Assembly (NCBI RefSeq): GCF_058153355.1
Contig: NZ_CM177019.1
Length of the DNA: 64,000 nt
Direction: 5' to 3' (one strand)
A program made the position numbers. Shown piece after piece: positions 1 through 3,000 of this stretch; position 1 is the first letter of the stretch; each line of letters starts with the position of its first letter.

Positions 1-3000
1 TACACGTTTACGGGCAATTTGCCGCTCCATCGCAGCCTGAAAATGAACGGTCAGGTAACCCACTTCATCCTCGCTCACTGCATTCTCACCCCAGGTTTTA
101 AATACCTGATTCACCACATATTGCGTCAACCGCCAGACATCCGCTAATTCTGCTTTAATATCTTCCAGCAATGGATTACGGATATGAATGCGATAATTTA
201 AACGGTTAATCAGCGGCTTAATATGAACCAACAAGCCATCATATAATGCGCTGTCTTCACTAAAATCGCAGTCCACGATGTCACTGAATACCGTAATTAA
301 ACGCCAGGTAATCAGACGCGCTTCATTGCTGGCCTGCATATGTGAAATAATGCTAACATCTTTTTGTCCATCAATCGCCACACCTGATGAAATGATATAT
401 TGATAAATAAACCAGACTTCATCATCGGGCAATGTATGTGCAATTCGTTGTTCTATCTTATGAATCATCTGACTGGCAACATTAAAGATATTTTCATCAT
501 ATTGCCTGGTTTGATCTTCTTCTCTTGATAACGCATTCCCGTGCGTGTTGCGATACATCATAATAAGGATGTGAGTAAAAATGTTAACGTAATAAGGTTC
601 TCCCAAAGACCAACTTAATTCATTTTCCATATCCAGTAACAATGACTGGACAAATAACACTTCTTCATCTCCAAAATAATGGACTAATGCTTTATAGCTT
701 CCGGGATCCAGACGTGAATACACGACACCTTGCGGCTCATTATGGTTAATAATGCCGTTAATCAGTAATGCCATTGCCTGTCGGACTTGCCCTTCACTAC
801 CTTCAATATGCGTACCACTTGGGCTGCGGATCAACGATAACCCCAACGGCGCAAGCCAGGACTCAATTACTCTCAGGTCATTAACAATAGAGGCTCCGCT
901 GATAAAGTAGCGTTCTGACAATTTACTGATCGACGTTTCATTCGGTGTTTCACTTAATAACTGCGACGCTATTTTAACGCGCCTGGCATTATTCATTACA
1001 CCATCAATCTCTTCACATTCTGCCACCAACAAATGATCAAGATGCAGCAAATCAGCAATATTCTCCGCGCTTAACATCACACCCGCGCCAGCACGCTTCT
1101 CAACATTTATTCTCCATTGCCCCAGCCATTGCTCAAGTAAACGTAAATCACGTTGAATGGTTTTTTCCGAAACATTTAAATAGCCGGCAATCGTAACAAT
1201 AGTCGTATATTCTCTTCGTGGTAGAAGGAATCGTAATAATCTGTTTTGTCGCGAGGTAATCATTTGCATTTTTTACCCTTATCACAGATTAAGAAGCCCC
1301 ATGAGGAAGAGCTTCAGTTGCCATCTCTGAGGGTAAATATAAAGCAGAATAATTTCACAACAATACTAAAATCTGTCCGTAATCCGGACAGTGATAAAAC
1401 AAAGCAAGGCGGTTAAGGGATATTTTTCAGCACAGATCACATTTTCGCGATGAATAATCGTGATCATGCTCGCAAATACGATGGAAGAAATATTTATTAC
1501 CAGATGTGAGATTATTTACCGGATACGACACAAAACCATTCGTATCCGGCATTCTTCAATAGATTACAACGTAATTGTCAGCGCATTCCCTTGAGGCGTC
1601 ACCACCAGCCCCTGCTCACTTTCAGCCTGCGAACCGCCTTGCAGACCATTTACTTTCACAACATTGCGCAAGCACAGCGTCCAGTTCTTCGCCACGCCCG
1701 CACCATTCACAGTAATTGTGTTGCCAGTACGCGCCGCTTTCAGGGTGAAAAGAACGGAACCATCGGCAGCGGGCACTTCACAGATGGCTTCATGCCCGTC
1801 TTGCAGATTAAAGAGCTGGAATGCCGTGCCTTCGTGCCACGCGTAATCGGGACGTTGCTCGTTGTTGCCCAGCGCCAGTAGGGTGTTATCACGCACATAA
1901 ACGGGCAGACTCAGGAAGCCGTGCTGCTGTTTATGCCAGCGACTACCATCGAGTTCATCGTTGTGCCACAGGTGTGTCCAGCGACCTTCCGGCAAGTAGA
2001 ACTGCACATCGCCCGATTCAGTGAACACTGGAGCAACCATCACGTTGTCGCCTAACATGTATTGACGGTCAAGGTAATCACAAGCCGGATCGTCCAGAAA
2101 CTCCATCATCATGGCCCGCATCATCGGCGTACCCCGCGCGTTCGCACGAGCAGCCTCACGATACAGATACGGCATCATGCGGCATTTCAGTTGCGTGAAG
2201 AAGCGCACCACATCACAGGACTCATCATCATAGGCCCACGGCACACGATAAGATTTGCTGCCGTGTAAACGGCTATGGCTGGAGAGCAAACCAAACGCGC
2301 ACCAGCGTTTGTAAACGTGCGCCGGAGCGGTATTCTCAAAGCCGCCGATATCGTGGCTCCAGAAGCCAAAACCAGAAAGGCCAATAGACAAACCACCGCG
2401 CAGGCTTTCCGCCATTGATTCGTAGTTAGCGTAACAGTCGCCCCCCCAATGTACCGGGAATTTCTGCGCACCAACGGAGGCCGAGCGGGCAAACAGGACA
2501 GCTTCCTCCTCGCCGACGGTTTCCTTGAGCACGTTCCACACCAGTTCATTGTAGATGTACGCATAATGGTTATGCATTTTCTGCGGATCGGAACCGTCAA
2601 ACCACTGAACATCGGTTGGAATACGTTCGCCAAAGTCGGTCTTAAAGCAATCAACGCCCATCGCGACCAGACCTTTCAGTTTATCGGCGTACCATTTACA
2701 GGCATCCGGATTGGTAAAGTCATAAATCGCCAGACCTGGCTGCCATTTATCCCACTGCCACAGCGAACCGTCCGGACGTTTGAGTAAATAACCTTTCTCT
2801 TGTAACTCTTTAAAGACAGGGGATTTTTGCCCGATATAGGGGTTAATCCAGACGCAGATTTTTAGCCCTTTCGCTTTCAGGCGGCGGATCATCCCTTCCG
2901 GGTCCGGGAAAGTCAGCGGGTCCCACTCAAAATCGCACCACTGGAAGGCTTTCATCCAGAAACAGTCAAAGTGGAAAACATGCAGCGGCAGATTGCGTTC

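Follow-up and report, generated by a model that had tools for sequence, protein, structure and literature searches.

FrzR, a PRD regulator at the head of the frz operon in the yicH-yicI junction of Escherichia coli, and its candidate operator

The minus strand of positions 1-1269 of the window, i.e., the whole stretch of 64,000 nucleotides of Escherichia coli DNA analyzed here (NCBI RefSeq assembly GCF_058153355.1, contig NZ_CM177019.1), holds frzR from its 5' end over four-fifths of its length; frzR opens the frz operon, an ordinary accessory locus which is already known and published. Very probably, the product of this gene is a PRD regulator that heads the operon and acts, under PTS control, as an activator binding a conserved box in front of frzR. 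The evidence for this reading comes from the gene neighborhood, the domain organization of the protein and the conservation of the leader region among orthologous loci.

The frzR gene and the yicH-yicI junction

Translation of the minus strand from 1269 to 1 gives 423 uninterrupted codons, beginning MQMITSRQ at the ATG at 1269. The fragment is identical in 422 residues to the first 423 of WP_001314234.1 (517 aa), the accession that the annotation of the BEN2908 chromosome (NZ_LR740776.1) gives to the regulator between yicH and yicI; the sole difference is the conservative E201D. The start assigned by PGAP agrees, as the last CDS base in NZ_CP098223.1 corresponds to window position 1269. A further in-frame ATG occurs at 1263 and is the one conserved in Vibrio, so the real start could be two codons downstream. 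The remaining 94 codons, including the EIIB-like domain and Cys427, lie beyond the left window edge; judging from other genomes, codons 424-517 would begin with LLVCSTGIGTSHLL. A preliminary description of this DNA had reported an HTH and PRD regulator running off the window from 1269 on the minus strand, which is borne out by the open frame and by the HTH_11, Mga and two PRD matches in Pfam, and the gene was indeed missing from the supplied ORF listing because its frame runs off the edge.

In K-12 MG1655, yicH (+) and yicI (-) are adjacent and convergent with 52 bp between their stops, in agreement with the arrangement given in the preliminary description, and homology of the window to K-12 resumes only at about 1541 (BLAST); the right-hand border of the frz insert is placed at about 1517-1541 by K-12 alignment and BLAST. 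In frz-positive strains the space between yicH and yicI is occupied by an insert of 7.25 kb and eight genes which, as read from the protein families, encodes in this order FrzR, the EIIA, EIIB and EIIC of a fructose-family PTS transporter, two class II ketose-bisphosphate aldolases, a ROK kinase and a lyxose-type isomerase (a cupin isomerase), with yicH convergent. The EIIA, EIIB and EIIC proteins are expected to measure 156, 104 and 363 aa. The order was established in genomes 99.8-99.9% identical to window 1-1600 and in BEN2908, with families checked against Pfam, and the frz genes downstream of frzR codon 423 are thus inferred from other genomes. The G+C content of frzR is 41.5%, vs. 51-54% in the flanking yicH and yicIJ genes. 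Two further suggestions made at the outset, that the regulator is foreign to K-12 synteny and that an accessory PTS locus begins with it and continues past the window edge, are therefore upheld, and the frame belongs neither to yicH nor to another K-12 core gene.

Table 1. Features of the frzR region of the window (aa, FrzR residues)
Feature	Position	Strand	Basis and remarks
frzR, codons 1-423 of 517	1-1269	-	Open frame and match to WP_001314234.1
PRD2, aa 324-413	31-300	-	Best stretch of Pfam PF00874; 1TLV alignment; 16-sequence alignment
PRD1, about aa 188-293	391-708	-	phmmer against LicT (1TLV), invariant columns, AlphaFold helices
Mga-type winged HTH, aa 100-169	763-972	-	Pfam PF05043, E 2.3e-13
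HTH_11/DeoR-like DNA-binding domain, aa 7-63	1081-1251	-	Pfam PF08279, E 1.4e-14
Ribosome-binding site AAGGG	1276-1280	-	Sequence; spaced 6 nt from the downstream start codon (ATG, 1269)
Putative activator-dependent sigma-70 promoter	1336-1363	-	Conservation in orthologous leaders
Conserved box TGTCCGGATTACGGACAGATTTTAGTATTGT, probable FrzR operator	1360-1390	-	Conservation upstream of orthologous regulators
Candidate CRP-like half-site AAATGTGATCTG...	1423-1444	-	Conservation; right half-site poor
Hairpin with 10-bp stem just past the yicI stop	1519-1549		Inverted repeat; corresponds to the hairpin between yicH and yicI in K-12
yicI (alpha-xylosidase)	1564-3882	-	ORF and annotation in near-identical genomes; core gene directly upstream of frzR

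The gene frzR occurs in 1602 of 5426 complete E. coli genomes (about 30%) and the whole insert in 1601 of them, i.e., in practically every frzR-positive genome. Among the complete genomes the closest to the window shares 99.3% identity over the first 12 kb, none is identical, and none attains 99% identity over positions 37-62 kb. Since the 3' end of frzR and the rest of the operon fall outside the window, and at least one genome, that of strain HS-02, retains nothing but a piece covering 21% of the frzR query (named "HTH domain-containing protein" in the annotation), the source strain might carry a decayed remnant in which the regulator is truncated or part of the operon deleted. This is hardly credible, however, in view of the intact visible reading frame with its single conservative substitution and of the fact that at least 80% of the frzR segment of the window is covered in 1598 of the 1602 frzR-positive genomes, 1601 of which have the whole insert.

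The frz operon was reportedly defined in the ExPEC/APEC strain BEN2908 by Rouquet et al. in 2009, in J Bacteriol 191:4427. The locus of BEN2908 has the same yicH-yicI location and the same orientation downstream of yicJI as that of the window, and its FrzR carries the same protein accession as in the closest genomes. Over the 423 codons of frzR that the window contains, nothing substantive distinguishes the two strains, whereas the selC side differs, the window strain having an eip/eilA/iatC locus. The BEN2908 genome paper lists the yicH-yicI insert as the frz operon, GR27, citing Rouquet 2009 (PMC12928451); in literature searches it was the one publication found on yicJI, and none was found on FrzR by name in E. 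coli.

Domain organization of FrzR

On the evidence of its domain matches, FrzR is a DNA-binding PRD regulator of five domains, namely HTH_11, a Mga-type winged HTH, two PRDs and an EIIB-like domain whose P-loop contains a cysteine (Table 1). The two PRD stretches of the window fragment matched Pfam with an E-value of 1.1e-30, and PTS_IIB was called at aa 422-498 of a full-length orthologue with 24.4 bits against a cut-off of 23.6 bits; Cys427, within LLVCSTGIGTS, is four codons past the window edge. Of the PRD, EIIB and EIIA domains for which the preliminary description proposed a search in the full protein, only the first two are present: Pfam gave no PTS_EIIA_2 match in full-length FrzR, which ends at residue 517, and EIIA is encoded by a separate gene after frzR.

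In phmmer alignments with LicT (1TLV), His233 of PRD1 and His349 and His409 of PRD2 align with the PRD histidines, while Tyr291 occupies the position of the second PRD1 histidine of LicT. Across 16 homologues with identities down to 38%, His233, His349 and Cys427 are invariant (residue numbers in the 16-sequence alignment are one lower because Met1 was omitted). His409 is a histidine in 12 of 12 aligned proteobacterial sequences and in Peribacillus, and a tyrosine in the other three long homologues.

The protein is named "BglG family transcription antiterminator" by PGAP, and its two PRDs would fit a true antiterminator of the BglG/LicT type, which would bind a RAT-like RNA and prevent a leader hairpin at 1391-1373. 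FrzR shares with BglG, LicT and SacY the duplicated PRD module and keeps three of the four phosphorylatable histidine positions of LicT; however, these proteins have a CAT RNA-binding domain, whereas FrzR has HTH domains at its N-terminus and an additional EIIB-like domain, and no CAT_RBD match was obtained in FrzR with Pfam at E ≤ 0.01. The NCBIfam equivalogs for BglG, LicT, GlcT and LacT score 23-65 bits against cut-offs of 300-500. Given the HTH domains and the lack of a CAT domain, the RefSeq name is generic and misleading as to mechanism, and as a matter of annotation it misstates the likely mode of action of FrzR.

The overall fold also speaks against an antiterminator. In a Foldseek comparison, which took in no solved structure of MtlR, LicR or ManR, the best full-length matches were AtxA (4R6I, E 7e-14), a Mga-family protein of Enterococcus (3SQN) and MgaSpn (5WAY), with E-values to 1.5e-10. 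The AlphaFold model has a mean pLDDT of 76 and the TM-scores are only 0.29-0.39, which probably reflects a differing orientation of the domains. AtxA, Mga, MgaSpn and AcpB (4R6I, 5WAY, 3SQN, 9ATX) share the HTH-HTH-PRD-PRD-EIIB-like order with FrzR and likewise have no EIIA; proteins of this group also matched FrzR in sequence searches, but identities are 12-18% only. The top NCBIfam match of FrzR is the AcpB/EbpR/MafR subfamily, with the best stretch at residues 5-164 and a score (83 bits) below the cut-off of 130 bits.

The frzR leader and a candidate operator

The conserved box upstream of frzR consists of the inverted repeat TGTCC/GGACA followed by ATTT(T)AGTATTGT. Its general form is TGTCC-N7-10-GGACA-NN-ATTTAGTATTGT, located upstream of a -10-like hexamer, and the TAGTATTGT block is part of the candidate operator beside the TGTCC and GGACA half-sites. 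The box occurs once in the 64-kb window. Every locus of E. coli, Salmonella, K. aerogenes, Pectobacterium, Pantoea, Vibrio and Celerinatantimonas has one copy upstream of the regulator and none elsewhere, except for a duplicated promoter in Vibrio. In Peribacillus the box precedes the divergent PTS operon, and degenerate boxes are found in Paenibacillus and Sebaldella, where 0.01 and 0.09 were expected by chance. Such a distribution suggests that the box at 1390-1360 is probably the FrzR operator. A literature search, which did not cover Rouquet 2009, found no description of the TGTCC-N7-10-GGACA box.

The spacer between the half-sites measures 7 nt in E. coli, 8 nt in other Gammaproteobacteria and 9-10 nt in Bacilli. 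A varying half-site spacer is unusual for the operator of a rigid dimer and counts against an operator function of the box.

Downstream of the repeat, a candidate promoter is formed by a -35-like TTGTTG (1363-1358), a 16-nt spacer and a -10-like TATATT (1341-1336), with transcription predicted to start near 1329. The promoter is putative and is proposed from phylogenetic conservation, the TAnATT hexamer and the TTGT just upstream being kept at a fixed spacing in 10 orthologous leaders; a stricter consensus scan called no sigma-70 promoter in 1150-1700. Both TAAGGGTAAA at the ribosome-binding site and AAATGTGATCTG are common to E. coli, Salmonella and K. aerogenes, and assignment of the latter to a CRP-like site upstream of frzR is speculative.

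Compared with shuffled sequence, the leader folds better (z -4.05). Between yicI and frzR, a terminator-like hairpin is called at 1391-1373 (-) by the consensus scan, as an antiterminator would require. In the orthologues, however, conservation of this "stem" is limited to its outer 5 bp, which enclose 8-10 nt, while the unpaired neighbor ATTTAGTATTGT is invariant. The -10-like hexamer lies downstream of the element, which is therefore probably not transcribed, and the gene upstream of the regulator is divergent in Pantoea, so that there is nothing to terminate. An Rfam search of window 1-1700 returned no match at E ≤ 1. Since conservation of 1373-1391 concerns its sequence rather than its structure, the element is read as a DNA site and an RNA element in the leader was rejected. 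Together with the domain content and the fold, these observations make antitermination by FrzR very improbable.

Proposed control of the operon and its wider family

The mechanism proposed for FrzR is based on MtlR, LicR and ManR, an established class of PRD activators of Bacillus. Like FrzR, these proteins contain a DeoR-like HTH, a Mga-like winged HTH, two PRDs and an EIIB(Gat/Lac)-like P-loop cysteine; like frzR, their genes stand beside a PTS operon, with a palindromic box just upstream of a weak -35. They differ in having a C-terminal EIIA(Mtl/Fru)-like domain, which in LicR and ManR carries a regulatory histidine, and in the second PRD1 histidine, replaced by Tyr291 in FrzR. By analogy with this class, FrzR would bind the box at 1390-1360 and thereby activate a weak -35 promoter from which frzR and the frz genes behind it would be transcribed, and phosphoryl transfer by the PTS would determine how active FrzR is. 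Phosphorylation of PRD2 (His349/His409) by HPr~P would render FrzR active and tie expression to the catabolite status of the cell, whereas in the absence of substrate phosphorylated FrzA/FrzB may modify Cys427 in the EIIB-like domain and/or His233 in PRD1 and turn FrzR off. As FrzR has no EIIA-like domain, this negative control site is a guess.

In each of the 10 orthologous loci examined, from three phyla, an EIIA-EIIB-EIIC set adjoins the regulator, whose PTS and aldolase neighbors are always the same, be it in Proteobacteria, Bacilli or Fusobacteriota. This neighborhood and the promoter-proximal box lead to the inference, again by analogy, that FrzR activates the adjacent PTS operon under the control of HPr and the cognate EII proteins.

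The frz operon is regarded as a fitness- and virulence-associated marker of ExPEC/APEC that promotes survival under oxygen and nutrient limitation and favors type 1 fimbriae expression, adhesion and invasion (PMC12928451, PMC8777976, PMC6727828). When frz is deleted, the type 1 fimbrial switch is reported to move towards OFF, and bacteria adhere and invade less (PMC8777976, PMC6727828). This phenotype, the EIIA-less layout of AtxA and Mga and the top NCBIfam match would be in line with a mainly global role of FrzR in virulence, comparable to that of Mga and AtxA and exerted, e.g., by direct action on the fim switch. The published phenotype, however, was obtained with the entire operon and could arise indirectly from metabolism, and the NCBIfam score is below its cut-off. 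The frzR gene sits in a sugar PTS/catabolic operon with constant neighbors in three phyla and not beside virulence genes; the box is found in the window before frzR only; and the invariance of the EIIB-like P-loop cysteine is as expected under cognate PTS control. A mainly global role is accordingly considered unlikely, and local, PTS-controlled activation of frz is preferred.

Homologues of 653-675 aa (Peribacillus, Paenibacillus, Sebaldella) carry an extra C-terminal stretch of about 140 aa, in which Pfam called no EIIA domain in the three proteins scanned. A gene fission, with FrzA, the product of the separate EIIA gene, as the detached C-terminus of these homologues, was rejected for lack of such a call and of a BLASTP match (FrzA against Peribacillus P0104 gave nothing, E 9). 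A broader reading, tentative and falling a little short of an even chance, is that the box is the operator of a cross-phylum group of FrzR-like PRD activators (Gammaproteobacteria, Bacilli, Fusobacteriota) controlling a PTS and ketose-bisphosphate-aldolase module, and that the C-terminal extension was lost in Gram-negatives, where the EIIB-like cysteine would be the sole negative switch.

The window thus derives from a frz-positive E. coli lineage, and the identification of frzR in it is of small importance beyond correct annotation. The box at 1390-1360 offers a concrete target for footprinting and reporter studies, which could help to find the inducer and the substrate of frz. The frz genes are linked with yicJI repeatedly, in E. 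coli, K. aerogenes and Salmonella; if the cross-phylum reading were true, this linkage would mean that frz and yicJI form one pathway for one sugar.

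The frz operon at the yicH-yicI junction

The regulator gene cut by the left edge of the window (1-1269, minus strand) is almost certainly frzR, the first gene of the frz operon. Window positions 1-1600 have matches that cover at least 80% of this segment in 1598 complete E. coli genomes, the best being 99.9% identical. There the gene encodes a 517-aa protein (WP_001314234.1), and genes for PTS EIIA (PTS_EIIA_2), EIIB (PTS_IIB) and EIIC come next, followed by two class II fructose-bisphosphate-type aldolase genes, one for a ROK kinase, one for a D-lyxose-type isomerase and then a convergent yicH. 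The PTS genes bear out the suggestion, made in the preliminary description, of an accessory PTS-type locus beyond the window. In K-12 MG1655 the yicH and yicI stop codons are 52 bp apart. BLAST against K-12 places the insert junctions 4 bp past the yicH stop and at window position ~1541; therefore ~25 bp of K-12 spacer is replaced by 7.25 kb, and the gene is, as had been proposed, foreign to K-12 synteny. The genome paper (PMC12928451) of BEN2908, the ExPEC/APEC strain in which frz was defined, lists "GR27, yicH..yicI, frz operon (7227 bp)" with Rouquet et al. 2009 as its source, and WP_001314234.1 occupies the yicH..yicI position of the BEN2908 chromosome; the insert is the frz operon.

Among 5426 complete genomes frzR occurs in 1602 and the whole insert in 1601, the frzR-positive genomes including Nissle 1917, ATCC 25922, ST131 and APEC O2:K1 strains. 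In published hybridisation work, frz was detected in 5% of non-pathogenic avian strains vs 75% of the most virulent group. Described as a single operon of BEN2908, it is reported to improve survival in late stationary phase with restricted oxygen. Other reported effects are a bias of the fim switch towards ON and greater adhesion and internalisation (PMC8777976, PMC6727828). A literature search that lay outside Rouquet et al. 2009 found no publication in which FrzR is named.

Other loci of the window

The features located are compiled in the table. The eip-type locus lies downstream of yicS, with names following the annotation of the closest genome; its iatC gene has internal repeats and diverges strongly among strains. 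The second accessory sugar locus, bounded by an ORF ending at 32817 and a yicN-like DUF1198 gene, is lacking in the closest complete genome. The selC gene is followed directly by setC with no integrase between them, whereas Z0117EC0005 (frzR 99.9% identical) carries at selC a tyrosine-recombinase island with F-type transfer genes. The complete E. coli genomes compared reach 99.3% identity over the first 12 kb and include no close match to 12001-62000: at 12-37 kb the full-coverage matches listed are ~92-93% identical, with at least 80% coverage in only 4 genomes, and at 37-62 kb no genome reaches 99%, the best full-coverage value among the matches listed being ~96.6%. From these sequence comparisons the strain looks mosaic.

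Features of the window and of FrzR
Feature	Position	Strand	Remark
HTH_11	aa 7-63		Pfam, window fragment
Mga HTH	aa 100-169		Pfam, window fragment
Two PRDs			Pfam, window fragment
PTS_IIB-like domain	aa 422-498		Pfam, full-length protein; begins right at window edge
Putative -10 TATATT	1341-1336	minus	
Putative weak -35 TTGTTG	1363-1358	minus	
Second hairpin, terminator-like	1391-1373		consensus scan
Hairpin	1519-1549		counterpart of K-12 yicH/yicI hairpin
tRNA-Sec (selC)	5567-5661		
setC	6301-7485		
eip-type locus	10145-26640		
SycD/LcrH-type T3SS chaperone	10145-10642		
YopB/SipB-like translocator	10890-12671		
Further ORF of eip-type locus	12684-13805		
IpaD/SipD-like tip protein	13849-15117		
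EilA, HilA-family regulator	15505-17202		
IatC, 3128-aa inverse autotransporter	17254-26640	minus	
Second accessory sugar locus	33048-39252		
LacI-family regulator	33048-34040	minus	
PTS EIIC	34624-35955		
GH1 phospho-beta-glucosidase	35955-37373		
LamB-family porin	37858-39252		

Reading frame and architecture of FrzR

The frame comprises 423 codons without a stop from an ATG at 1269 (translated N-terminus MQMITSRQNRLLRFLL), preceded at 6 nt by an AAGGG ribosome-binding site and chosen as start by PGAP in near-identical genomes. A second in-frame ATG (1263) is the one conserved in Vibrio, so translation may begin two codons later. The ORF listing omits frzR because the frame passes the left edge of the window, as had been supposed. 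The G+C content of the gene is 41.5% vs 51-54% in the flanking core genes; the fragment is identical to WP_001314234.1 at 422/423 residues (sole difference E201D), and a decayed remnant is very improbable.

The HTH and PRD domains found by Pfam in this open frame agree with the minus-strand HTH plus PRD regulator first described. Of the PRD, EIIB and EIIA domains to be looked for in the full-length protein, Pfam recovered the PRDs and an EIIB-like domain; neither an EIIA nor a CAT domain was found.

RefSeq names the protein "BglG family transcription antiterminator", as a true antiterminator would be, but FrzR scores 23-65 bits with the NCBIfam BglG, LicT, GlcT and LacT equivalogs, below their cut-offs of 300-500; the top match is AcpB/EbpR/MafR (83 bits, not reaching the cut-off of 130). 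Foldseek was run against the PDB with an AlphaFold model (mean pLDDT 76) computed from 16 aligned sequences. Its strongest full-length hits are AtxA 4R6I (E 7e-14), 3SQN (an Mga-family regulator of Enterococcus), MgaSpn 5WAY and AcpB, the LicT PRD fragments matching far more weakly. The four canonical LicT PRD histidine positions align with His233, Tyr291, His349 and His409, and across 16 homologues, the most distant at 38% identity, His233, His349 and Cys427 (LLVCSTGIGTS) never change (the alignment is numbered one lower, Met1 being omitted). The domains, scores, fold matches, histidine alignment and invariant residues together identify FrzR as a DNA-binding PRD regulator with MtlR/LicR/ManR-AtxA/Mga architecture, and antitermination is highly unlikely. 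The Peribacillus, Paenibacillus and Sebaldella homologues are longer (653-675 aa), their extra C-terminal segment showing no recognisable EIIA and no resemblance to FrzA, the EIIA of frz.

The frzR leader and related loci

Within the 294 bp yicI-frzR spacer, the terminator-like element corresponds to a box conserved in ten orthologous leaders, TGTCC-N7/8-GGACA-NN-ATTTAGTATTGT, with a conserved TAnATT ~18 nt past it; Rfam gave no match in the leader. Conservation of the "stem" is limited to its outer 5 bp, the unpaired sequence next to it does not vary, and the element is followed by a -10-like hexamer; we infer from this that the box is a DNA operator beside a weak -35. Each gammaproteobacterial locus has a single TGTCC...GGACA, always placed 120-175 nt 5' of the regulator start codon, except for one duplicated promoter copy in Vibrio. 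In the 64-kb window the pattern occurs once (0.13 expected by chance); that FrzR is a Mga-like global virulence regulator, as its fold relatives might suggest, is hard to credit. Peribacillus has two copies, one with a 10-nt spacer that faces a divergent EIIA-EIIB-EIIC operon and a degenerate one that faces the regulator; Paenibacillus and Sebaldella have GGACA-NN-A(T/A)TTAGTATT 60-90 nt 5' of the regulator (chance expectation of degenerate copies 0.01 and 0.09). A point against the operator reading is that the half-site spacer varies: it measures 9-10 nt in Bacilli, 8 in every other gammaproteobacterial orthologue compared (L004, L005-L008, L011) and 7 in 4/4 E. coli alleles (window 1374-1390, Nissle 1917, 28Eco12, BEN2908), a 1-bp deletion that might weaken the box.

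MtlR, LicR and ManR provide the model for phospho-control in this family, and by analogy FrzR rather likely acts in the same way at the box. It would bind there to switch on the transcription of frz; phosphorylation of PRD2 (His349/His409) by HPr~P would render it active, and in the absence of substrate the cognate EIIA/EIIB~P would inactivate it at Cys427, or at His233 of PRD1.

K. aerogenes, Salmonella, Pectobacterium, Pantoea, Peribacillus, Paenibacillus and Sebaldella also have the regulator-EIIA-EIIB-EIIC-aldolase core, whereas Vibrio and Celerinatantimonas combine this regulator and these PTS genes with pentose-phosphate-pathway genes in place of the aldolases. As in E. coli, the K. aerogenes operon sits between yicI and yicH; the Salmonella operon has yicJI homologues 3' and a transposase gene 5' of it. 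Physical linkage in three genera (K. aerogenes L004 6008-16946, Salmonella enterica L011 741-11294, E. coli) and two arrangements, yicJI preceding the operon in E. coli and K. aerogenes but following it in the Salmonella locus, suggests that frz-like operons and yicJ/yicI are functionally linked. In Vibrio salinus (L005 12322-12520) the box and first ~16 regulator codons (ATGAAAATGATTACC..., then stop) are duplicated between the first and second EIIA genes, and thus a copy of the regulator promoter appears to be reused to drive transporter genes.

The frz locus is already well known as an accessory operon; the present analysis adds only two points: an operator-like box is conserved in front of frzR, and the domain content of FrzR does not fit its RefSeq product name.
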